This document shows positions 27,138 to 60,968 of a stretch of 61,124 bases of DNA, piece after piece. Below the pieces are notes generated by a model. The model was not told where the DNA came from. It saw nothing but the letters and a program-made list of their open reading frames with translations, and searched no databases. Source of the DNA: Bacillota bacterium (GTDB lineage Bacteria; Bacillota; Sulfobacillia; JAJYWN01; JAJZPE01); the NCBI GenBank assembly GCA_036504675.1, contig DASXUT010000144.1, positions 1 through 61,124 of the forward strand, written 5' to 3'. How positions within the stretch are numbered: the stretch's first letter is position 1; each line of letters starts with the position of its first letter. The position numbers and the translations under genes are program-made.

Positions 27138-28096
27138 CCCCCGTCCCCCTCCCCCACCCTGGTCCGTGGGTCGATGACCCCGTAACTGAGATCCACGGCC
27201 AGGTTGATAAGGGAGACGATAAGCACGAAGAAAACGACCAGCCCCTGGACGAGGGGCAGGTCGCGGTCGGCGACGCCGAGGAGCAGGAGGGTGCCCAGGC
27301 CCGGCAGGGCGAAGACCCGCTCGATCACGACGCTGCCGGCCAGGAGCGCTCCGACCTGCAGGCCGGCCGTGGTCAGGACGGGGATGACCGCGTTGCGGAG
27401 GCCGTGGCGAAAGAGGACGCCGGCCTCGGTCACGCCCTTGCCCCGGGCGGCCTGGACGTAGTTGGCCGAGAGGGCTTCACCCATCGCGGCCCGGGTCAAC
27501 CGGGTCAGCACGGCCGCCCGCCCGACGGCCAGGGTCAGGGCGGGCAGGACGAGATAACCCAGTCCGGCCAGGAAGCCCTCCCCCGAGCCGGCATAGCCAC
27601 CGGCCGGGAAGATGTGAAGGCCGAGGGAGAAAGCCATGATCGCCATGATTCCCAGCCAGAATCCGGGGACGGCCAGGCCGAGCTGCAAGAAGAAGGTGGC
27701 CGCCCAATCGACTCCTCGGCCGCGGCGGGCCGCGGCCAGGACGCCCAAGGGTACCCCGATGAGGGCGGCGACAAAGATGGCCATCGCCGCCAGGGTGGCC
27801 GTCAGGGGCAGGCGGCTGAGGATGAGGGTCAATACCGGCTCCTCGTAATGGACCGAGCGCCCGAGGTCGCCCCGGGACAGCCCGCTGAGCCAGCCGAGGA
27901 AGCGCACGCCTAAAGGCCGGTCGAGGCCCAGTTCGGCCCGGACGGCCTGGATCGACTCGGGCGACCCTTCGAGGCCGACGATGACCGCGGCCGGGTCCCC
28001 AGGCAGGATATTGAAGACGAAAAAACTGAGGGTCGAGGCGATGAGGACGGTCAGGACAAGTCCGGCGAGGCGCCTCATCAGGGCTTGGATGGTCAA
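27134..28096 (-). CDS. ABC peptide/nickel-type transporter permease (DppB/OppB/NikB-like)
   Basis: N-terminus typical of DppB (LLRRL-like, FVFNILPGDPA), plus YVQAARGKGVTEAGVLFRHGLRNA. Confidence 0.85.
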   Translation of the reverse strand: MTIQALMRRLAGLVLTVLIASTLSFFVFNILPGDPAAVIVGLEGSPESIQAVRAELGLDRPLGVRFLGWLSGLSRGDLGRSVHYEEPVLTLILSRLPLTATLAAMAIFVAALIGVPLGVLAAARRGRGVDWAATFFLQLGLAVPGFWLGIMAIMAFSLGLHIFPAGGYAGSGEGFLAGLGYLVLPALTLAVGRAAVLTRLTRAAMGEALSANYVQAARGKGVTEAGVLFRHGLRNAVIPVLTTAGLQVGALLAGSVVIERVFALPGLGTLLLLGVADRDLPLVQGLVVFFVLIVSLINLAVDLSYGVIDPRTRVGEGDGG

Positions 28097-28159: not shown

Positions 28160-29689
28160 CTACTTTCCCTTGGACACCCCGCGCAGGTCGTAGATGTCGA
28201 TGGGATAGACCTGCCACCCCTGGACGGCCTTGTTCAGGCCGACCACCTGCATCGGCGACTGGAGATAGACGGCCGGACACTGATCGGCCAGGATCTCCTG
28301 AGCCCGTCGGTAGAGCTGCTTGCGCTGGTTCGGGTCGGACACGGTGGCCGCCTGGGCGATGATCTGGTCGTATTCGGGATCCGAGAAGTTCATGTAGTTC
28401 TCTTTGCTGGTACTGACGTATCGATTCAAGAACGGGTCCGGGTCGAGCCGCCCGGTGTGGCCGATGACGGTCAACTCGTAATGGCGACCGCTGTAGACTT
28501 CCTTAAGCCAGGTGGCCCAGTCGATGACCTTCAGGTCGGCCTGAACCCCGATCGCCTTGAGCTGTTCGGCCACCACCTGCCCGGCCTTGCGGTGCAGCAT
28601 GTAGGGCTCAGGGAGAATGATCGTCGTCTTGAAGCCGTTCGGCCAGCCGGCCTCGACCAAGAGAGCCTTGGCCTTGGCCACGTCCTGAGCGTGTCTGGCC
28701 GTGAGGTCGTTGTACCAATCGCTCGAGGCCGGCATGTGGGTGGCGATGGGCGTCCCGTAACCCCAGACCGAGCCGTCGATGACCGCCTTCCGGTCGACGG
28801 CTAGGGCGAGCGCCTGCCGGACCCGGACGTCGTCAAAGGGCTTCTTCTTGTTGTTGATCGCCATCAGCTGTACGGCGTTCATCGGCACCGCCAGAAGCTT
28901 CAGGCCGGCGTCGGCCTCGACGTCCTTGGCGTTCTCCGGCGGGACATCCGGGACGACGTCGACCGTCCCCGACTTGAGGGCCATCAGCCGGGCGGCCGGG
29001 TCGGGGATGACCTGGAAGACCACCTGATCGACCTTGGCCGCGCCGCGCCCGAAGTACTGGTCAAAGCGCTCCAGGACGACCTCCTGGTCCTTCTTCCACT
29101 CGACAAACTTGAAGGGTCCGGTGCCGACGGGCGCCGTGCTCATCGTCCCGGCCGCTTCCTTGGGGACGATGGCCGCCCAGCCCATGGCCAGGTTGGACAA
29201 GAAGGAGGCCTGCGGCGCCTTGAGGGTGATGGTCACCTGGGCCGGGCCGCTCACCGCCACCGAGGCCACGGCGGCGAAATCGGCCGCCCGCTTGTTGGCG
29301 CCGGGGTCGCGGATCTGGTCGAGGCTCCACTTGACATCCTCGGCCGTCATCTTCCGGCCGTTGTGGAAGAAGACGTCGGGGCGGAGGTTGAAAGTCCAGG
29401 TCAGCCCGTCAGGGGAGACCTTCCAGTCGGTGGCCAGGTCGGGGCCCAGCCGTCCGGCCGGGTCCGTCTGGACCAGGTTGTCGAAGATGTTCCGGGTCAG
29501 GTTGAAGGTGGCCGCGGCCACCGTCTTATACGGGTCGAGTCCGTCCGGATCGGTGTTGATGGCCACTCGCAGGGCTTGCTGCCGGGCGCACCCGGCCGTT
29601 CCGGGAAGGATCACGGTCGCCAGAAACGCCACCACCAAGAGCCCGATCAGGGCTCCGCGCGTCCTCTTGCCGCCGCCCGTCTTTCCCAA
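28160..29689 (-). CDS. ABC transporter substrate-binding protein, family 5 (DppA/OppA/NikA-like)
   Basis: TTG start with a ggagggg SD, a lipoprotein-like signal (LPGTAGC), and family-5 blocks (DPYKT, NLFDNLV, W.F.LR..V.FH.G). The ligand cannot be told from the sequence. Confidence 0.85.
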   Translation of the reverse strand: MGKTGGGKRTRGALIGLLVVAFLATVILPGTAGCARQQALRVAINTDPDGLDPYKTVAAATFNLTRNIFDNLVQTDPAGRLGPDLATDWKVSPDGLTWTFNLRPDVFFHNGRKMTAEDVKWSLDQIRDPGANKRAADFAAVASVAVSGPAQVTITLKAPQASFLSNLAMGWAAIVPKEAAGTMSTAPVGTGPFKFVEWKKDQEVVLERFDQYFGRGAAKVDQVVFQVIPDPAARLMALKSGTVDVVPDVPPENAKDVEADAGLKLLAVPMNAVQLMAINNKKKPFDDVRVRQALALAVDRKAVIDGSVWGYGTPIATHMPASSDWYNDLTARHAQDVAKAKALLVEAGWPNGFKTTIILPEPYMLHRKAGQVVAEQLKAIGVQADLKVIDWATWLKEVYSGRHYELTVIGHTGRLDPDPFLNRYVSTSKENYMNFSDPEYDQIIAQAATVSDPNQRKQLYRRAQEILADQCPAVYLQSPMQVVGLNKAVQGWQVYPIDIYDLRGVSKGK

Positions 29690-29939
29690 GGCGATCCCCT
29701 CCTATGCGATTTGAGGGCCAGCGAGGGCTCAGTGCGAGAAGAGTGGCGGCCCGGCCTTGAACAAAAACAGCCTTCCCGCGGGGGAAGGCTGACAAAGCCA
29801 TGGCCGGCAGGTCAGCTCCCTGTCTCGGTCCGCGGTCGGATCCAAGCATGGCTGTTCCTGAGCTTCGACGAAGCTGCGTAGGCACCAGGGAATAAACTCG
29901 AGGTGTAGCCCTCTGTGCTACCCTTCCTGTATTATATCA
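29690..29939 (-). promoter_or_regulatory. Structured ~235-nt leader of unknown class (extended -10 TGATATAAT, several hairpins, internal terminator)
   Basis: Minus strand tgatataat at 29939-29931. Helices include guagc/gcuac and agccaug/cauggcu. The 5' GGAAGG can pair with the terminator 5' arm CCUUCC (antiterminator). The segment GAGACAGGGAGCUGACCUGCCGGCC is only loosely B12-box-like. Confidence 0.45.
29762..29791 (-). terminator. Intrinsic terminator inside the leader of the ABC operon
   Basis: A 10-bp stem cagccuuccc / gggaaggcug with loop ccgc, followed by guuuuug. It sits about 75 nt upstream of the SBP start codon. Confidence 0.7.
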
Positions 29940-30048
29940 CCGCTCCGGAAGGCTGGAAAGGGTCAAGAAGCGAGGAAACCCCCAGGCGCAAAGGACGGTA
30001 TGAGCCGGCCTCAGCCAGAAGGGGAAAGCGTGGACGGGCCAGACAGAA

Positions 30049-30070
30049 AGGAACCCCCGAAGGGGTTCCT
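30049..30070 (-). terminator. Hairpin terminator after the small zinc-ribbon gene
   Basis: aggaacccc / ggggttcct stem with loop cgaa, followed on the minus strand by tttctgtct. Confidence 0.55.
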
Positions 30071-30075
30071 CGATT

Positions 30076-30282
30076 TCACGGCATCACCGCGGCCAACCAG
30101 CCAGGACGGAGGGCTACCGTCAAGACCGGCGAACCGCACCTCGGACAGCGTAGGGCTTGAGCCTTCCCACGTTTTTCCTCGCCGACCGGCCCCCGATCCT
30201 CCGGGGCCGTTCCCCGGGCAACCTCCAGACCTTGCACTCCGCAGCTCAGACACAAGTACTCAACCGCGTCGACCACCTTCAA
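30076..30282 (-). CDS. Small zinc-ribbon protein (68 aa, CxxC...CxxC), function unknown
   Basis: TTG start 8 nt downstream of a perfect AAGGAGG. The sequence is MKVVDAVEYLCLSCG....CPRCGSPV. It has its own terminator. Confidence 0.55.
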   Translation of the reverse strand: MKVVDAVEYLCLSCGVQGLEVARGTAPEDRGPVGEEKRGKAQALRCPRCGSPVLTVALRPGWLAAVMP

Positions 30283-55018: not shown

Positions 55019-55750
55019 CTAGCCCTTGACCTCCAGGTTGGCGTGGACCTGCTGAACGTCGTCGTGCTCTTCGAGGAGGTCAAGGAGCCGCATGGCCTGG
55101 TCGGCCTTGTCCCCACTGAGCTCGGTATTGGTCGTGGGAACGTAGGTCAACTCGGCCTCGGCCGTCTTGATTCCCCGCTTGACCAGGTTCGACCGGACCT
55201 TCTCGAGTTGCTCCGGGACGGTGTAGATGACGTACTGGTCCTCTTCCTTCTGGAAGTCCTCGCCTCCAGCGTCCAAGCTGAGCATCATCAGGTCGTCCTC
55301 GGAGAGCTTGACGTCCTCCAGGTTGACCAGAATCTGCCCCCGCCGCTTGAACATCCAGGCGACGCAGCCGGTTGCCCCGAGGCTGCCCCCGTTCCGGTCG
55401 AAGATGTGGCGAATCTCAGCCGCCGTGCGATTCCGGTTATCGGTCATCACTTCCAGCATGACCGCCACGCCGGCCGGTCCGTAGCCCTCGTAGACGACCT
55501 CTTCGAAGTGGTCGGCCTCGCCGGCGCCGCTGCCGCGCTGGATGGCCCGCTGGATGTTCTCCCCCGGCATGTTGGCCGCCTTGGCCTTATCGATGACCAT
55601 CTTCAGTCGGAAGTTGCCGTCGGGGTTGGGCCCTCCCTCGCGCGCCGCGATGATCAGCTCCCGGGCGATCTTGCTGAAGACCTTCCCCCGGGCCGCGTCG
55701 ACCCTGGCCTTCTGTCTCTTGGTGGTGGCCCACTTGGAATGGCCTGACAA
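55019..55750 (-). CDS. yebC: YebC/PmpR family DNA-binding regulator
   Basis: MSGHSKWATTKRQKA and GPNPDGNFRL. Full-length collinearity with the family. Confidence 0.93.
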   Translation of the reverse strand: MSGHSKWATTKRQKARVDAARGKVFSKIARELIIAAREGGPNPDGNFRLKMVIDKAKAANMPGENIQRAIQRGSGAGEADHFEEVVYEGYGPAGVAVMLEVMTDNRNRTAAEIRHIFDRNGGSLGATGCVAWMFKRRGQILVNLEDVKLSEDDLMMLSLDAGGEDFQKEEDQYVIYTVPEQLEKVRSNLVKRGIKTAEAELTYVPTTNTELSGDKADQAMRLLDLLEEHDDVQQVHANLEVKG

Positions 55751-55794
55751 GCGTCTCTCCCCCTACGAGCTGATTGACGTAAGACCCGAGTCTA

Positions 55795-55824
55795 ATTCTA
55801 GCACATCTCTGGCTCCCCTGGCAA
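55795..55824 (-). promoter_or_regulatory. Sigma-A-type promoter upstream of yebC (TTGCCA-18-TAGAAT)
   Basis: Minus strand ttgcca (55824-55819), 18 nt spacer, tagaat (55800-55795). Confidence 0.5.
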
Positions 55825-55854
55825 AAGTGGAAAAGGGCGCCCGGACGGGCGCCT
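55825..55854 (-). terminator. Intrinsic terminator closing the sulfur-carrier operon
   Basis: ggcgccc / gggcgcc stem (55836-55853) with a 4-nt loop, followed by cuuuuccacuuuu on the minus strand. Confidence 0.65.
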
Positions 55855-55895
55855 ACCCATCGGCGCCATGAAGCGCCCCTGGGTTCGTTCCACCT

Positions 55896-56648
55896 CTAGA
55901 CCATGGCAATCGGGGGCAGCCGGCGCTTGTGCTCACTCCCGGTCATCCGGGACCGGATCTTGGCGACCACGTCGGCGGGTCCATTCCCGGTCAGGAGGAA
56001 CTCATCGAGCTGGGCATAGGTCAGGCCCATCTCCCCCTCGTCGGTCTGCCCCGGCCAAAGGCCGGCGGTCGGCGGCTTATCGACGACCCTGACCGGCACG
56101 CCGAGTTCCCTGGCGACCTCGCGGACCTCGGCCTTGACCAGGTTGCCCAGGGGAAGCAGGTCCACTCCTCCGTCGCCGTACTTGGTGAAGTAGCCCATCG
56201 CCAGCTCACTGCGGTTCCCCGTGCCGATCACCAGGTAGCCCCGGAGATTGGCGTGGTAATAGACGGTCATCATTCGCAGCCTGGGCTTGATGTTGGCCAG
56301 GGCGAGGGCCTCGGACGAACCCCCGGGCGGTGGCGGTCCTTCGGCCATCCCGAGGACCTCGATGAAGCGGTCATAGATGGGGCTCAGGTCGACGGTCTTG
56401 ATCGGGACCCCGAGCGCTGAAGCGACCAGAAGGGCATCCTCCTGGTCGACGGGTTGGCTGTGGCAAGGCATGATGAGGCCGAGGCAGCCGTCGGGAAAGG
56501 CGCGCCGACAAAGGCCGGCCACGACCGCCGAGTCGATCCCCCCGGACAGGCCGAAGGCGCAGCCCTTGCCGCCGGCCGCCGTGACCTGGTCCCTGATCCA
56601 TCGGACCAGGCGGTCGACCCGTCCGGCGACGTCAGTCATCGGTGTCAC
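55896..56648 (-). CDS. nadE: NH3-dependent NAD+ synthetase (PP-loop)
   Basis: FGLSGGIDSAVVAGL, GTGNRSELAMGYFTKYGDGG and KPPTAGLWPGQTDE. The start overlaps the upstream LarE-like gene stop. Confidence 0.85.
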   Translation of the reverse strand: MTPMTDVAGRVDRLVRWIRDQVTAAGGKGCAFGLSGGIDSAVVAGLCRRAFPDGCLGLIMPCHSQPVDQEDALLVASALGVPIKTVDLSPIYDRFIEVLGMAEGPPPPGGSSEALALANIKPRLRMMTVYYHANLRGYLVIGTGNRSELAMGYFTKYGDGGVDLLPLGNLVKAEVREVARELGVPVRVVDKPPTAGLWPGQTDEGEMGLTYAQLDEFLLTGNGPADVVAKIRSRMTGSEHKRRLPPIAMV

Positions 56649-57538
56649 GACGATCCGCCCTTTCGTGTCCCCTTCAGAGTCTCGTTCATGCTCCCCGTGC
56701 GGTATCCCCCGAGGTCCATCGTCACGTAGGTGAACCCGAGCTCCTTCAAGCGGGCGGCGACCCGCTCACGAGCCTCGACGAGCCGGGCCATATCACCGGG
56801 CGCGACTTCGATTCGGGCCACGTCTCCGTGATTCCTCACCCGGAGTTGCCCCAGACCCAGCTGATGGAGGAACTGTTCCGCTCCGGCCACCCGCTTGAGT
56901 TCCGGTCGGGTGATCCGCCGCCCGTACGGGAAACGCGAAGCGAGGCAGGCCAGGGCCGGCTTGTCCCAGGTGGGCAGGGCGTGGGCGCGCGACAAGGCCC
57001 GGATGTCGGCCTTGCCAAGCCCGGCCTCCAAGAGCGGACTTCTGACCCCCAACTCCGCCGCCGCCTGGCGGCCCGGCCGGTGATCGGACAGATCGTCGGC
57101 GTTGGTACCGTCGAGGACCGACCCGAGCCCCTTCGTCCGAGCGATCTCGGCCAACTTCCCAAAGAGCTCTTGCTTGCAGTAGTAGCAGCGGTTTGACGGG
57201 TTGACGGCGAACTCCTCGTTCTCGAGTTCCGCCGTCTCGATGAGCTCGAACCGCACCCCGAAGGCGGTGGCCAGGTCCCGGGCGGCGACGATCTCCTCAG
57301 GGAAATAGGTCTCCGATGAGGCGGTGACCGCCAGGACCCGTTCTCCGAGGGCTTCTTTGGCCTCCCAGAGCAGGAGGGTGCTATCGACACCGCCGGAGAA
57401 GGCCACCACCGCCCCGCCCAGCCCGGCCAGGACCTCGCGGAGATGGGCCTCCTTCTCGGCCAGCTCCGGCCCGATCGACTGGCCGGCGTTCACGACGGTG
57501 GGCTGGCCCAAGCGAAACGCACCTACCCTCTCAACCAC
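56645..57538 (-). CDS. larE: LarE-like PP-loop ATP-dependent sulfur transferase (three-Cys, Fe-S-type pattern)
   Basis: VAFSGGVDSTLL, NRCYYCKQELF and PALACLASRFPYG, plus the C-terminal LRVRNHGDVARIEV, which is typical of the LarE family. The GTG start is uncertain. Confidence 0.75.
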   Translation of the reverse strand: MVERVGAFRLGQPTVVNAGQSIGPELAEKEAHLREVLAGLGGAVVAFSGGVDSTLLLWEAKEALGERVLAVTASSETYFPEEIVAARDLATAFGVRFELIETAELENEEFAVNPSNRCYYCKQELFGKLAEIARTKGLGSVLDGTNADDLSDHRPGRQAAAELGVRSPLLEAGLGKADIRALSRAHALPTWDKPALACLASRFPYGRRITRPELKRVAGAEQFLHQLGLGQLRVRNHGDVARIEVAPGDMARLVEARERVAARLKELGFTYVTMDLGGYRTGSMNETLKGTRKGGSS

Positions 57539-57851
57539 AAGTATTCCCGCCGCAACAGCCGCCGTGGCCGGCGTGGGGCGGGGGCTCGGCCGGGGCCTCT
57601 CCCGACTGGGCCCCGTCTTTCAAGACCAGCAGACGGAAGCACGGCCCTTCGGGGGTGATCCTAACCACCAGGTGGCCGGCCCCCTTCAGGCTCCTGGGGA
57701 CATCGCGAACCGGCTGCCCGTCGTCAAGGAGCACCGAAAGATACCCCCCGCTGGGGATATCCTCCAAGGCCAGCATGGTGTGGATAAAAGTATAAGGGCA
57801 GAACTCGCCGCGCAGGTCGAGTTGGGGAACCTCACGATTATCTTGGTCCAT
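57531..57851 (-). CDS. TusA/SirA-like sulfur carrier with a Cys-rich C-terminal tail
   Basis: LDLRGEFCPYTF....L......G..L.VLLDD......VPRSL...GH is the TusA pattern. The tail is HAGHGGCCGGNTCG. The ATG at 57851 is preceded by gaagggag. Confidence 0.7.
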   Translation of the reverse strand: MDQDNREVPQLDLRGEFCPYTFIHTMLALEDIPSGGYLSVLLDDGQPVRDVPRSLKGAGHLVVRITPEGPCFRLLVLKDGAQSGEAPAEPPPHAGHGGCCGGNTCG

Positions 57852-58269
57852 TCTCCGGACTCCCTTCAACGATCAGCGACGCCTCCTCCACCCGGCCGTC
57901 GACGATGTGGAAGGCCCTGACCGCCGGCTCCCCTCGGAGGGAGACGATCACCTGAAAGGCCTCCGGGTAGTAAGCCAGCCGGACATCCTTCGGCGAGGGT
58001 CTGGCGTCGCTGGTCGGGTGGGAGTGGTAGATGGCGGTCAGCTCCAGGCCGTCCCGCTCCATCTCCTGCATCACTCGGAACTGGTCCTCCGGGTCGACTC
58101 GGTAGTCGAAGGGGCTTCCCTCGACGTTCCTCACCTTGCAGACCCGGGTGACCCGGCCGCCGAGACCGACCAGGAGCCCGCAGGCCTCGTTCGGCCGCTC
58201 GTCCAGGCAGTGGACGATGATCTCACGCATTTGTCCCGCCGACAGGCGGAGCGCCGCAGAATGCTTCAT
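57838..58269 (-). CDS. JAMM/MPN+ metalloprotease (Mec+/HcyD/QbsD-like)
   Basis: The E-x-CG ... HSHPTSDARPSPKD motif is a complete JAMM motif (E, HxH, S, D). Confidence 0.85.
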   Translation of the reverse strand: MKHSAALRLSAGQMREIIVHCLDERPNEACGLLVGLGGRVTRVCKVRNVEGSPFDYRVDPEDQFRVMQEMERDGLELTAIYHSHPTSDARPSPKDVRLAYYPEAFQVIVSLRGEPAVRAFHIVDGRVEEASLIVEGSPENGPR

Positions 58270-59140
58270 AATCGATCAATCCCTTGATGGTCGGGTGGTC
58301 TCCGCAGACCGCGCAACCGAGGTCGCTCCGCAGCCGGACTTCGTCGAACCGCATTGACAGGCCGTCGAAGAGGAGCAGGCGGCCGGCCAGGGTCTGTCCG
58401 GCTCCCGTCAGGAGCTTGAGCGTCTCCAGCGCCTGGATGGTGCCGATGATCCCGGGCACGGGTCCGAGGACGCCGGCTTCCTGGCAGCTGGGGACCGTGC
58501 CGGGAGCCGGTGGGGACGGATAAAGGCAACGGTAGCAGGGGCCCGCCCCCGGGATGAAGGTGCTGGCCTGCCCCTCGAAACGGAGGACACTGCCGTGGAC
58601 GAAGGGCCGCTTGGTCAACACGCAGGCGTCGTTGATCAGGTATCGGGTGGTGAAATTGTCGGTAGCGTCGACGATGACATCGTACCCGGCGAACAGCTCG
58701 AGGGCGTTGGCGCTCGTCAGACGGCCGTCGTGGGCGACCACCTCGATGTCCGGGTTCAGCCGGTCGAGCTTCTCTTTGGCCGACTCGACCTTCAATCGCC
58801 CGACGTCAGGCGTGTGGTGGATGATCTGCCGCCCAAGGTTGGAGAGGTCGACCGTGTCGCCGTCGATGATCCCGAGGCGGCCGACCCCGGCCGCGGCCAG
58901 GTAGCAGGCGGCCGGTGAGCCGAGCCCGCCGGTGCCGACGATCAGGACCCGACCGGCGGCGATCTTCCGCTGGCCGGCCGGACCGATCTCAGGCAGCAGC
59001 ATGTGCCGCGAATAGCGCTTGATCTGATCGGAGCTGAGACCGCCCCGACCTGGAGAACGTGTTCCTTGCTCTCCCATTGGTGGCCCTCCCTCCTTGGGCT
59101 TTTCCGCCTCAATCCTAACCGTCCGCGAACGGGCTGTCAA
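58223..59140 (-). CDS. ThiF/MoeB-type E1-like adenylyltransferase, no rhodanese domain
   Basis: YSRHMLLPEIG..GQ.K.....VLIVGTGGLGSP, two CxxC pairs (CYRC, CAVC) and SCQEAGVLG. TTG start overlapping the carrier stop; the ATG at 59077 is the alternative. Confidence 0.88.
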   Translation of the reverse strand: MTARSRTVRIEAEKPKEGGPPMGEQGTRSPGRGGLSSDQIKRYSRHMLLPEIGPAGQRKIAAGRVLIVGTGGLGSPAACYLAAAGVGRLGIIDGDTVDLSNLGRQIIHHTPDVGRLKVESAKEKLDRLNPDIEVVAHDGRLTSANALELFAGYDVIVDATDNFTTRYLINDACVLTKRPFVHGSVLRFEGQASTFIPGAGPCYRCLYPSPPAPGTVPSCQEAGVLGPVPGIIGTIQALETLKLLTGAGQTLAGRLLLFDGLSMRFDEVRLRSDLGCAVCGDHPTIKGLIDYEAFCGAPPVGGTNA

Positions 59141-59439
59141 CCGAACCGCGGCCGGGGAGCCCCGCCGGCGATGGCCGGGATGATCGAGACCTCATCGCCG
59201 TCCTTCAGCAGGGTGGTGAGACCGTCGGCGAAACGGACATCCTCCTGGTTGACGTAGATGTTGATGAACCGACGGATGTTCCCGCCCTCGTCGAGGAGCT
59301 TCCCGGCAAAGCCGGGGTAGTCCTGGTCGAGCTGGCGGATGAGTCCGCCGACGGTCCCGGCCTCCACCGAAAGCTCGGCCGAGTTCCCGGCCATCCGGCG
59401 CAGCGGGGTCGGGATTCGTACTTTGCAGCTCAAGGTCAA
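59137..59439 (-). CDS. CysO/MoaD/ThiS-family ubiquitin-fold sulfur carrier with a 7-residue extension after the Gly-Gly
   Basis: KVRIPTPLR.....FINIYVNQEDVRFADGLTTLLKDGDEVSIIPAIAGG is collinear with M. tuberculosis CysO as I recall it. The protein ends ...AGG-APRPRFG. A TTGA overlap links it to the ThrC-like gene. Confidence 0.85.
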   Translation of the reverse strand: MTLSCKVRIPTPLRRMAGNSAELSVEAGTVGGLIRQLDQDYPGFAGKLLDEGGNIRRFINIYVNQEDVRFADGLTTLLKDGDEVSIIPAIAGGAPRPRFG

Positions 59440-60674
59440 GCCCCCTCCTTTTGGCGCAGGGTCTTCTCGAACTCCTCGAAGCGCGGCTCAATGGCCCCGG
59501 GAGCGCCGGCCAGGCAGCCGTCGATGGCCTCCACCGTCTTCAGACCGTTGCCGGTGATGTAGGCCACGGTCACTCCCTCCACGTCCAGCCGCCCTTGCTC
59601 GGCCAGTTTCCGCAGGACGGCCACGGTCACTCCGCCGGCCGTCTCGGTGAAGACCCCCTCGGTCCGAGCCAGGAGCCGCATGCCGTCGACAATCTGGTCG
59701 TCGCTCACGTCGTCGATGTACCCGCCGGTCCTTCTCACCGTGCGCAGGGCGTACTCGCCGTCGGCCGGACTGCCGATGGCCAGGGACTTGGCGATGGTCG
59801 CCGGCTTGACCGGACTGACCACCTCGGCCCCGGCCTTGAAGGCCCGGGCCACCGGGGCGCACCCGGTCGCCTGGGCGCCATAGACCCTCGGTTCCTTCCC
59901 CTCGACCAGCCCCAGCTTGAGGAGTTCACGGAAGCCCTTGTTGATCTTGGTCAGGACCGAACCGCCGGCGATCGGCGAGACGACCTGATCCGGGATCTTC
60001 CAGCCGAGTTGCTCGGCGGTCTCGTAGGCCAGGGTCTTCGAGCCTTCGGAGTAGAAGGCCCGGAGGTTGATGTTGACGAAGGCCCACCCGTAGCGGTCGG
60101 CGACTTCGCTGGCCAACCGGTTGACTTCATCGTAGTTGCCCCTGACCGTGACCAGGTTGGGCTGGTAGATCAAGGTCCCCAGGACCTTCCCCACCTCGAG
60201 CCCAGCCGGGATGAAGACATAGCACTTCAAACCGGCCCGCGCGGCGTGGGCGGCGACCGAATTGGCCAGGTTGCCCGTGGAGGCGCAGGCGACGGTGTCG
60301 AAACCGAACTCGATGGCCTTGGAGACGGCCACGCTGACGACCCGGTCCTTGAAGGAGTAGGTCGGGTTGACCGAGTCATTCTTCAGGTAGAGGTTCCTCA
60401 GACCGAGTTCCCGCCCGAGGTTCTCGGCCCTCAGCAGCGGGGTGAAGCCGGTCCCCAGGTCGATCACCCGCTGGCCGTCAACGGGCAGGAGTGACCGGTA
60501 CCGCCACATCGACGGCGGCCCGCTCTCGATGGAGAAGCGACTGACGGCCGCCCTCAGGGCGTCATAATCGTAGTCGACCTCGAGCGGTCCAAAACACTCG
60601 GAGCAAATGCTGATCGGGCCGACCGGGTAGGTCTGGCCGCATTCGCGGCACCTCAGCCCTTTGACGTAAGACAC
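59436..60674 (-). CDS. Threonine-synthase-family PLP enzyme with an N-terminal zinc ribbon (candidate homocysteine synthase)
   Basis: LRCRECGQTYP....CSECFGPLEV and NPTYSFKDR (PLP lysine). Collinear with the short archaeal-type ThrC. Start moved from 60815 to the GTG at 60674, which has an aaggggggg SD, because 60690-60910 is a riboswitch plus terminator. Confidence 0.85.
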   Translation of the reverse strand: MSYVKGLRCRECGQTYPVGPISICSECFGPLEVDYDYDALRAAVSRFSIESGPPSMWRYRSLLPVDGQRVIDLGTGFTPLLRAENLGRELGLRNLYLKNDSVNPTYSFKDRVVSVAVSKAIEFGFDTVACASTGNLANSVAAHAARAGLKCYVFIPAGLEVGKVLGTLIYQPNLVTVRGNYDEVNRLASEVADRYGWAFVNINLRAFYSEGSKTLAYETAEQLGWKIPDQVVSPIAGGSVLTKINKGFRELLKLGLVEGKEPRVYGAQATGCAPVARAFKAGAEVVSPVKPATIAKSLAIGSPADGEYALRTVRRTGGYIDDVSDDQIVDGMRLLARTEGVFTETAGGVTVAVLRKLAEQGRLDVEGVTVAYITGNGLKTVEAIDGCLAGAPGAIEPRFEEFEKTLRQKEGA

Positions 60675-60689
60675 GCCGAACCCCCCCTT

Positions 60690-60725
60690 AGAAAAATCAA
60701 AGACCTCTTCCGGACGGAAGAGGTC
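60690..60725 (-). terminator. Expression-platform terminator of the SAM-I riboswitch
   Basis: gaccucuuccg / cggaagagguc stem (60702-60725) followed by uuugauuuuu. It lies immediately upstream of the SD and GTG. Confidence 0.8.
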
Positions 60726-60764
60726 GAAATGACCAAAGCCACGAAGGGCGCGGTCGGATCGCCT

Positions 60765-60910
60765 CCTCTCATCTTTCAGGACGCCGCCACTAGGCGTTCC
60801 TGTCGGAGTTGGCACCTTTTCCCCGCCGCCCGGCCTGATGGAAGCCGGGGGCTGCGGACGGTTGCCGAGGCTTCATCGGGCCGTTCCCTTCGCCTCTCTG
60901 GATAAGGGAG
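60765..60910 (-). promoter_or_regulatory. SAM-I (S-box) riboswitch aptamer
   Basis: The minus-strand RNA reads CUUAUCCAGAGAGGCGAAGGGAACGGCCCGAUGAAGCCUCGGCAACC...GGUGCCAACUCCGACAGG...CUGAAAGAUGAG. This reproduces the S-box consensus CUUAUCAAGAGAGGUGGAGGGACUGGCCCGAUGAAACCCGGCAACC..GGUGCUAAUUCC.GCAG..CUG..AGAUAAG. Confidence 0.9.
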
Positions 60911-60939
60911 CAATTGCTGCTATTTGGTTGTTGGAACCT

Positions 60940-60968
60940 ATATTAGCACCCCCAGGGGGTATCGTCAA
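60940..60968 (-). promoter_or_regulatory. Sigma-A promoter of the riboswitch operon (TTGACG-17-TAATAT)
   Basis: Minus strand ttgacg (60968-60963), 17 nt spacer, taatat (60945-60940). It lies about 25 nt upstream of the aptamer P1. Confidence 0.6.

Follow-up and report, generated by a model that had tools for sequence, protein, structure and literature searches.

A larE gene between a carrier-dependent methionine module and nadE in a Sulfobacillia genome: likely two separate modules placed head to tail

Gene neighbourhoods that encode a ThiS/MoaD-like carrier together with a JAB peptidase, an E1-like enzyme, a SirA/TusA protein, sulfite reductase, sulfhydrylase and others have been described as class 4e ‘sulfur metabolism’ neighbourhoods (Iyer, Burroughs, Aravind 2006; PMC1779556), and MoaD-like genes are already known in the setting of tungsten aldehyde-oxidoreductases (PMC1779556). 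In Streptomyces, a MetM/MetO pathway comprising the MetO carrier, the Mec hydrolase, MoeZ and MetM is experimentally supported according to GapMind 2026 (PMC13759103), and metM of S. albulus has an upstream SAM riboswitch (PMC12172450). The LarE of T. maritima is a [4Fe-4S]-dependent sulfur insertase; cluster-type LarE works in vitro with E. coli IscS plus cysteine and not with sulfide, and Ser180, Arg212 and Arg214 have been named as substrate-phosphate residues of the L. plantarum enzyme (PMC9283937).

The locus described here brings relatives of several of these together on one strand. The window, that is, the whole stretch of 61,124 nucleotides that was analysed, belongs to a 199-contig assembly that is 96% complete; the sequencing run that best contains this DNA is a soil metagenome, probably the sample of origin, and no RNA run was listed for it. 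The original prediction had read its TusA-like and LarE-like genes, followed by nadE, as a possible new sulfur relay serving an E1 that lacks a rhodanese domain. All of the genes it named are present on the minus strand, in the order SAM-I riboswitch, metM, metO, E1, JAMM, TusA-like, larE, nadE, and profile scores and coordinates confirm the genes, the riboswitch and the overlaps. Functional assignments are predictions from homology, motifs, phyletic patterns and synteny. The features are:

60940..60968, minus strand: promoter-like site P1 (TTGACG-17-TAATAT), 5' of the riboswitch, from a consensus scan
60766..60908, minus strand: SAM-I (S-box) riboswitch aptamer (Rfam RF00162, 79.2 bits against a gathering score of 44.4, E 5.7e-18)
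60702..60725, minus strand: intrinsic terminator of the riboswitch expression platform, 10-bp stem and T-run
59436..60674, minus strand: ThrC-family PLP enzyme, MetM-like (PALP 237 bits, TIGR00260 301.6 bits)
59137..59439, minus strand: ThiS/MoaD-family carrier, MetO/CysO-like (Pfam ThiS 66.9 bits, TIGR01687 52.9 bits)
59112..59140, minus strand: promoter-like site P2 (TTGACA-17-TAGGAT) between the carrier gene and E1
58223..59077 (to 59140 as first stated), minus strand: E1-like adenylyltransferase, MoeB/ThiF type (Pfam ThiF 285.5 bits)
57838..58269, minus strand: JAMM/Mec+-type metallopeptidase (Prok-JAB 80 bits)
57531..57869 (probable start ATG 57851), minus strand: TusA/SirA-family protein (Pfam TusA 58.5 bits)
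56645..57538, minus strand: LarE, predicted [4Fe-4S]-type PP-loop sulfur insertase (TIGR00268 334.7 bits)
55896..56648, minus strand: NadE, NH3-dependent NAD+ synthetase (TIGR00552 236.5 bits)
55795..55824, minus strand: promoter-like site P3 (TTGCCA-18-TAGAAT with TG) in front of yebC
55019..55750, minus strand: YebC/PmpR-family gene, the first of a yebC-ruvCAB block (NF001030 334.8 bits)

Because the genes from JAMM to nadE overlap (JAMM with TusA, TusA with larE by 8 nt, larE with nadE by 4 nt), they almost certainly share a transcript and may be translationally coupled, which leaves room for a functional tie. We nevertheless consider it likely that the locus consists of two functionally separate modules arranged head to tail, with LarE having no part in carrier loading, so that the proposed new relay would instead be two ordinary modules side by side.

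The upstream part is, judged by homology and gene content, a known type of protein-thiocarboxylate methionine (homocysteine) pathway. The MetM-like protein, a candidate carrier-thiocarboxylate-dependent homocysteine synthase, belongs to a set of four ThrC-family paralogues in this genome; its gene adjoins the ThiS/MoaD carrier gene and follows a SAM riboswitch, and the best-scoring ThrC, a separate housekeeping copy, lies elsewhere. Its longest open reading frame (to 60815) crosses the riboswitch, so the real start should be GTG 60674. The carrier is encoded as a pro-protein, ...AIAGG-APRPRFG, with a seven-residue tail behind the Gly-Gly, and the predicted role of the JAMM peptidase, whose overlap with the end of E1 is kept in the sister genomes L026 and L027, is to trim this tail and/or release the product adduct. 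Pfam finds ThiF alone in the E1, confirming that it carries no rhodanese domain; it has two CxxC motifs and does not end right after the second, as had been supposed, since about 27 residues follow. An own-genome search turned up no second strong ThiF-family gene, compared with six ThiS-family carriers. Translation of E1 most likely begins at ATG 59077, which a Shine-Dalgarno sequence precedes; metO and E1 would then lie about 60 nt apart, with a promoter-like site inside the gap, and not overlap.

The TusA-like protein exceeds the gathering cut-off of PF01206 (58.5 against 28.6 bits), and its catalytic cysteine lies within FCPYTF, at the start of helix 1, with Cys24-Pro25 invariant in nine sequences. 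The CPYT motif and the cysteine-rich tail to which the original prediction drew attention are both there. CPYT, CPIN and CPIT mark a subfamily, with YedF (1JE3) as the closest relative, and do not represent a defect; the protein is YedF-like only (52.4 bits on the equivalog model NF008242, cut-off 79). The Cys/Gly/His tail, HAGHGGCCGGNTCG, is matched in the closest homologue (P0079, 80% identical) by a different end, ...PGPGEERCVVPWTKR, and the remaining relatives lack a tail altogether. The idea of a conserved metal or sulfur site in the tail was rejected, as the tail is absent or different in all relatives. The protein is 73% identical to residues 324-400 of a 402-aa NIR_SIR+Fer4+TusA protein of L026 and is, by this alignment, a remnant of the sulfite reductase-TusA fusion found in sister genomes. 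NIR_SIR was not found in the present genome (96% complete), and the window holds no linked sulfate or sulfite reduction genes (sulfite reductase, PAPS reductase, others). In other families TusA adjoins E1, JAMM, ThiS and CysM, and in sister genomes it is fused to a small sulfite reductase; by gene neighbourhood it belongs to the carrier module, which, with ThiS/MoaD-like carrier, JAB, rhodanese-less E1 and SirA encoded together, corresponds to class 4e of Iyer et al. (2006). Sulfur must reach an E1 without rhodanese in trans, and its likely source is the TusA-like protein. This half of the predicted relay therefore stands, as something already known since 2006; the LarE half does not.

LarE scores far above its equivalog cut-off (334.7 against 150 bits), has the invariant SGGVDS motif, and carries, as foreseen, C118-Y-Y-C121 and the ACLASR cysteine (C198), all three cysteines being invariant in 15 homologues from the class. 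This CxxC...C set occupies the cluster-binding position of the T. maritima enzyme (PMC9283937). LarE aligns end to end with L. plantarum LarE (5UDQ, 190 bits), its S201, R233 and R235 aligning with Ser180, Arg212 and Arg214, the substrate-phosphate, P2CMN-binding residues. Homology begins near residue 26, which leaves the start codon uncertain; in the LarE search, the closest relatives with a name are Bacillota MAGs. As had been noted, larB and larC are absent from the window, and from this a nickel-pincer role had been judged unsupported locally. The rest of the genome supplies what the window lacks: LarB (NF033503, 291.7 against 175 bits), LarC1 and LarC2, both above their cut-offs and overlapping larB on contig C35, and two LarA-family genes on other contigs (460 and 331 bits to NPN-racemase models), whereas an own-genome search found no other LarE. 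In a genome that also encodes LarB, LarC and LarA-family proteins to use the cofactor, LarE is predicted to be an ordinary [4Fe-4S]-type nickel-pincer cofactor sulfur insertase. Complex prediction of LarE (26-297) with the TusA-like protein (10-90) gave no verdict (score 0.00 in both runs, controls not folded) and counts neither for nor against an interaction, and a literature search for LarE together with TusA found no paper.

Comparison across relatives separates the two modules further. Among 41 genomes of the class, LarC occurs in 13 of the 14 that have LarE and in none of the 27 that lack it; LarE thus follows LarC, not the carrier genes, and all 13 genomes with a larE-nadE/yebC arrangement have LarC on another contig. 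NadE, whose identity is borne out by a full-length match to TIGR00552 (236.5 bits, cut-off 63.65, profile positions 6-242), is the sole NAD synthetase, the only above-cut-off match in the genome. YebC follows NadE in most of the 29 NadE loci examined in relatives, and nadE-yebC is kept with or without larE; by this synteny, NadE belongs to a class-wide nadE-yebC(-ruvCAB) block. Five genomes that lack both LarE and LarC (G004, G013, G018, G020 and G025) have E1, JAMM and/or TusA directly upstream of nadE-yebC, so that inherited synteny explains the adjacency of larE to the carrier genes. On a provisional tree, the LarE of a same-order genome, beside larC-larB, is among the rows close by path to the clade of the window's LarE, which by its placement nests among LarEs of canonical lar clusters. 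A separate paralogue subfamily of LarEs in the nadE context was considered and rejected, as these form no clade on that tree. Three genomes (G022, G031 and G206) have a second LarE, the other copy in G022 sitting with larB and larC, and a specialised role of the nadE-context copy is possible there.

Regulation, too, appears to be divided. Promoter-like sites, defined as consensus matches, were compared in three genomes (that of the window, L026 and L027); they fall at three corresponding positions, the expectation per region being 0.3-0.6. P1-equivalent sites lie 5' of the riboswitch-like leader in L026 and L027, where the riboswitch terminator hairpin is also found, and P3 is identical in both. 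The P2 hexamers are the same and at the same position in these sister genomes; the -35 and -10 hexamers and the downstream Shine-Dalgarno/ATG align, with indels in the flanks. P2, sigma-70-like and kept in position in three genomes, is a probable internal promoter, probably constitutive, and the SAM-I riboswitch therefore probably gates metM-metO only. The only strong E1 for six ThiS-family carriers and the only NadE should both need SAM-independent expression. Why NadE should stand in a SAM-controlled operon, a puzzle raised by the original prediction, probably ceases to be a question, given the conserved nadE-yebC block and a P2 between metO and E1.

We thus envisage that the SAM-I riboswitch would gate metM and metO, the carrier being made with its GG-APRPRFG tail, and that the second, probably constitutive promoter would drive the shared E1, the JAMM peptidase and the TusA/SirA protein. 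E1 would adenylate the carrier Gly-Gly, JAMM would trim the tail and/or free the product, and the TusA active-site cysteine would replace the missing rhodanese domain. The larE-nadE pair would mark the start of the nadE-yebC(-ruvCAB) block, with larE an optional insert between the carrier genes and nadE; LarE would work with the LarB and LarC of another contig for the LarA-family racemases/epimerases of the genome, and NadE would serve as a housekeeping NAD synthetase.

Other readings of the gene order deserve weighing. That the TusA-like and LarE-like proteins jointly load adenylated MetO, LarE then not being a nickel-pincer enzyme here, draws on the overlapping genes, on the absence of larB and larC from the window, and on the possibility, in principle, of sulfide delivery by a PP-loop [4Fe-4S] enzyme. 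The original prediction had itself named larA, larB and larC elsewhere as evidence to the contrary, and all of them are on other contigs; to this are added a sole larE with conserved P2CMN-binding residues, the tracking of LarC by LarE, and the five LarE-less relatives that keep E1, JAMM and/or TusA next to nadE. As E1 already activates the carrier, a second adenylating enzyme would have no obvious role. By its own yardstick this relay is close to refuted, and we find it scarcely credible. Perhaps, instead, larE and nadE are co-expressed so that flux is balanced between NAD and the nickel-pincer cofactor, NaAD being a substrate of both LarB and NadE. The two genes are adjacent in 12 loci, including the window, across several families of the class, and both enzymes are PP-loop ATPases acting on a pyridine carboxylate, but nadE-yebC is conserved regardless of larE, and it is LarB, encoded elsewhere, and not LarE that acts on NaAD. 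We sampled 80 LarE loci from many other phyla (a pattern scan matched >600 stretches); their commonest neighbours are LarB and LarC, and NadE is a neighbour in none. Such a pairing is very improbable.

It is more tempting to speculate that the coupling runs in reverse, the nickel-pincer LarE taking sulfur for the open iron site of its cluster from a neighbouring TusA persulfide or carrier thiocarboxylate, on the model of thionucleotide-tRNA enzymes, which likewise have a tricoordinated [4Fe-4S] cluster; the position of larE behind E1, JAMM and TusA would then be functional, not accidental. The sulfur source shown for cluster-type LarE, IscS plus cysteine, is an in vitro one (PMC9283937). At least five families of the class (f1, f28, f32, f21 and f4) have carrier-module genes immediately 5' of larE, and an unrelated Desulfitobacterium (L101) has a TusA gene 25 nt ahead of it. 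The cysK/cysM genes directly precede larE in Desulfuromonadota loci and occur near it in one Actinomycetota locus (CysK/M directly upstream in 3 of the 80 sampled loci, within the flanks in 6). LarE is also fused in frame to JAMM (G029) and to a MoaD-like carrier ending AGG-ASPP (G014), and elsewhere to ThiF (P0059), a PALP/cysteine-synthase-like domain (P0006, P0012, P0037) and a class-V aminotransferase (P0069). Against this, genomes that lack LarE have the carrier genes in the same position beside nadE, 29 of the 53 LarE loci of the class have larB and larC and no carrier genes, and TusA, ThiS and JAMM each appear once in the 80 loci. The JAMM and MoaD fusions, moreover, are singletons in searches of 5.8 billion and 1.84 billion proteins: the JAMM part of L028 gave one partial match and no additional fusion, and among 1.84 billion representatives only the MoaD-LarE query matched itself as a fusion. 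Other matches in the latter search begin no earlier than query residue 80, most of them around 95-110, and two N-terminally extended ones carry an RNase H-like domain or nothing recognisable; the MoaD-LarE fusion itself lies in a tungsten aldehyde-oxidoreductase cluster. Reverse coupling is therefore, in our judgement, unlikely, and it is quite unlikely that the [4Fe-4S] LarE of this lineage obtains its nickel-pincer sulfur from a co-transcribed TusA/E1/ubiquitin-like-carrier relay and not directly from a cysteine desulfurase. If true, such feeding would provide LarE with a physiological sulfur donor of its own and would explain why larE is repeatedly placed beside, and occasionally fused with, carrier, TusA, E1 and cysteine-synthase genes.

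Under the favoured reading of separate modules, an attractive ‘new sulfur relay’ would be a synteny mosaic in which a known carrier/JAB/E1/TusA methionine module adjoins two genes of housekeeping or cofactor function. The locus would offer a MetM/MetO-type pathway in a high-GC soil bacterium, with TusA in place of the MoeZ rhodanese domain, and a modest lead on the in vivo sulfur donor of cluster-type LarE. The probable internal promoter also counsels caution against extending riboswitch control over a whole string of overlapping genes.

Set beside the known systems, the upstream module resembles class 4e in that carrier, JAB, rhodanese-less E1 and SirA/TusA occur together, with sulfite reductase fused to TusA in sister genomes; it differs in that the PLP enzyme is ThrC-family and MetM-like, not an O-acetylhomoserine sulfhydrylase, that the sulfite reductase half has been lost from this genome, and that a SAM riboswitch would gate the first two genes. 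By family and gene arrangement it also resembles the Streptomyces MetM/MetO system (ThrC-family enzyme, ThiS/MoaD carrier, SAM riboswitch, E1 and JAMM/Mec-type peptidase), whose E1 is MoeZ, whereas here an E1 without rhodanese is encoded with a TusA-like protein. The closest solved relatives of the latter, E. coli YedF (1JE3) and T. maritima TM0983 (1JDQ), share the CPY motif around the active cysteine but score only 32-36 bits and differ from it in its non-conserved Cys/Gly/His tail; that TM0983 adjoins T. maritima LarE is, by our own estimate from the locus numbers given in PMC9283937, presumably not the case. LarE shares with the T. maritima enzyme the PP-loop, the CxxC...C triad (its cluster here being predicted), the substrate-binding residues and a genome containing larB and larC, and differs in lying away from larB/larC, behind carrier-module genes and in front of nadE. 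From the sacrificial L. plantarum LarE, despite the end-to-end alignment and the equivalents of its phosphate-binding residues, it is set apart at the sulfur site: the sacrificial Cys176 aligns with Ala197, which C198 adjoins, and the L. plantarum protein has W97 and A100 at the positions of C118 and C121, without the cluster-type motif.

The system is a further case of a known kind, adjoining ordinary genes. All of the motifs quoted in the original prediction are present, confirming the observation itself, and the gene string is laid out as follows.

55019-60968, minus strand: whole gene string, promoter-like site to yebC, with ruvCAB beyond
First element, before the riboswitch, minus strand: promoter-like site (consensus scan)
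60766-60908, minus strand: SAM-I riboswitch (79.2 bits)
60702-60725, minus strand: riboswitch terminator
From GTG 60674 (real start), after the terminator, minus strand: ThrC-family PLP enzyme
After the ThrC-family gene, minus strand: ThiS/MoaD carrier, C-terminal end AIAGG-APRPRFG
59112-59140, minus strand (sister loci: L026 10186-10214; L027 6463-6491): sigma-70-like promoter, TTGACA-17-TAGxAT, between carrier gene and E1
From ATG 59077 (probable real start), minus strand: E1 of MoeB/ThiF type, two CxxC, without rhodanese domain
After E1, minus strand: JAMM peptidase
Between JAMM and LarE, minus strand: TusA-family protein
Between TusA and NadE, minus strand: LarE
After LarE, minus strand: short NadE
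145 nt beyond NadE, minus strand: yebC, ruvCAB

Genes from JAMM through NadE overlap by 4 to 47 nt. The longest ThrC-like ORF (59436-60815) runs across the riboswitch and terminator, and its first 47 codons are non-coding.

A consensus scan of the window and both sister loci, with a chance expectation of 0.3-0.6 matches per region, placed promoter-like sites at three matching positions in all of them: ahead of the riboswitch, in the gap between carrier gene and E1, and ahead of yebC. The window has two extra matches, on the plus strand, that neither sister locus shares. When the metO/E1 gap was aligned as DNA, the TTGACA and TAGxAT hexamers proved conserved, as did the Shine-Dalgarno sequence and start codon further down (ATG in the window and G001, GTG in G002), with indels in the sequence separating them. 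The site between carrier gene and E1 implies that the riboswitch would gate metM-metO only, and that the E1 TTG start at 59140 is spurious. In addition, the window's genome has no strong ThiF-family gene other than the E1, against six ThiS-family carriers, and no NAD synthetase other than NadE; the E1 and NadE should both need SAM-independent expression. We infer two putative transcription units, riboswitch-metM-metO and E1-JAMM-tusA-larE-nadE.

The window LarE is, judged by homology, a genuine LarE and the sole copy in its genome. It scores 334.7 bits against TIGR00268 (cut-off 150), aligns end to end with Lactobacillus plantarum LarE 5UDQ (190 bits), and retains the substrate-phosphate-binding residues of the latter (S201, R233 and R235); no second LarE was found in the genome (199 contigs, 96% complete). 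Its cysteines C118, C121 and C198 make up the CxxC...C triad with which T. maritima LarE binds a [4Fe-4S] cluster (PMC9283937). The original prediction, in which the TusA-like and LarE-like proteins may load sulfur onto the carrier, had named larA, larB and larC elsewhere in the genome as its refutation, and these genes exist on other contigs: larB (291.7 bits, cut-off 175) overlaps larC on contig C35, both LarC1 and LarC2 exceeding their cut-offs, and two LarA-family genes lie on contigs C165 and C173.

The distribution of LarE follows that of LarC. Of 41 same-class genomes, 14 encode LarE and 13 encode LarC; LarC is present in 13 of the 14 LarE genomes versus 0 of the 27 that lack LarE. LarE was detected in 50 of 210 genomes of the whole class sample, and all 53 class loci were fetched and annotated by phmmer: LarE adjoins larB and/or larC in 29, stands ahead of nadE-yebC in 13 (once directly before yebC), and lies in other settings or on short contigs in 11. 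LarC sits on a separate contig in 13/13 genomes with the nadE arrangement. On a quick tree, the nadE-context LarEs do not form a clade of their own, and a LarE adjoining larC-larB in a same-order genome is among the sequences that are path-close to the window's clade. G022, G031 and G206 each carry two LarE copies; in G206 the second copy follows an E1-like gene of the ThiF family, a cysteine-desulfurase-type class-V aminotransferase and a regulator resembling Rrf2 (whole stretch L141:5764-10314, plus strand).

NadE occurs exactly once in 40 of 41 relatives (G034 has two matches, on short contigs), and in the 29 relatives' NadE loci examined, yebC mostly comes next. Five genomes without LarE and LarC keep carrier-module genes directly upstream of nadE:

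G018: E1-JAMM
G004: TusA
G025: E1-TusA-JAMM
G020: E1-TusA
G013: JAMM

The conserved arrangement thus reads [carrier module]-[optional larE]-nadE-yebC. Carrier loading cannot depend on LarE as an obligatory component.

Could cluster-type LarE nevertheless be fed by neighbouring sulfur-mobilising proteins? In 80 LarE loci of many phyla, drawn from among the matches listed, larB and larC are the neighbours most often seen; NadE is a neighbour in none, and TusA, ThiS and JAMM occur once each. A cysteine-synthase-like gene (PALP) stands directly upstream of larE in three Desulfuromonadota-type loci (L086, L087, L109) and near it in L057, L104 and L126, and a Desulfitobacterium has a TusA gene 25 nt upstream of larE. 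Database fusion partners of LarE include LarB, LarC, radical-SAM/BATS domains, PALP enzymes, ThiF and class-V aminotransferase. Within the class, JAMM is fused in frame to LarE in G029 (434 aa, L028:4765-6069, plus strand, followed by nadE-yebC), and a MoaD/MetO-like carrier (…PLAGG-ASPP…) is fused in frame to LarE in G014 (356 aa, L036:676-1746, minus strand). However, the former has no second example among 5.8 billion proteins and the latter is the sole instance among 1.84 billion representatives. Upstream of the G014 fusion, moreover, are genes for an aldehyde ferredoxin oxidoreductase, a ferredoxin and a cupin; the fusion belongs to a tungsten aldehyde-oxidoreductase cluster, where MoaD-like genes are expected. 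These hints allow such feeding without establishing it, and we consider it improbable.

Among the database fusions are PALP-LarE (P0006, P0012, P0037), LarE with radical-SAM/BATS (BioB/HydE-like) domains (P0003, P0004, P0009, P0011, P0017), LarE-ThiF (P0059) and LarE-class-V aminotransferase (P0069).

TusA is part of the carrier module, as already known. In both same-family genomes, a 402-aa protein between JAMM and LarE combines a small sulfite reductase (NIR_SIR_ferr, NIR_SIR, ferredoxin inserted) with a C-terminal TusA domain:

L026:7690-8898, minus strand: sulfite reductase-TusA fusion, between JAMM and LarE
L027:7694-9073, plus strand: sulfite reductase-TusA fusion, between JAMM and LarE

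The window TusA is 73% identical to the C-terminal part of this fusion, and no NIR_SIR gene was found anywhere in the window's genome, where the reductase half has been lost. In other families, TusA is accompanied by sulfite reductase, E1, JAMM, a ThiS ending GGGR and a CysM-like enzyme. The TusA tail HAGHGGCCGGNTCG is not conserved among relatives; the closest homologue (80% identical, stand-alone, 106 aa) has an unrelated ending after PAEPPP, and the remaining relatives end earlier. We ascribe no function to this tail.

Of the proposed sulfur relay in trans, then, the TusA part holds but had been published before; support is lacking for the part concerning LarE and NadE. Iyer, Burroughs and Aravind 2006 (PMC1779556) describe ThiS/MoaD-JAB-E1 neighbourhoods for sulfur assimilation whose E1 'always lacks' rhodanese and in which SirA, predicted to replace that domain, is 'always' present; the window matches this description exactly in its rhodanese-less E1 and SirA/TusA protein. 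The window's genome has four ThrC-family genes; on contig C198, a ThiS-like gene (27402-27674) lies about 1.4 kb from a ThrC-family paralogue (29130-30104, 214.8 bits), and together they may form another carrier-dependent PLP enzyme pair. Finally, the window resembles the Streptomyces MetM/MetO methionine route in having a ThrC-like enzyme and carrier behind a SAM riboswitch (PMC13759103; PMC12172450).
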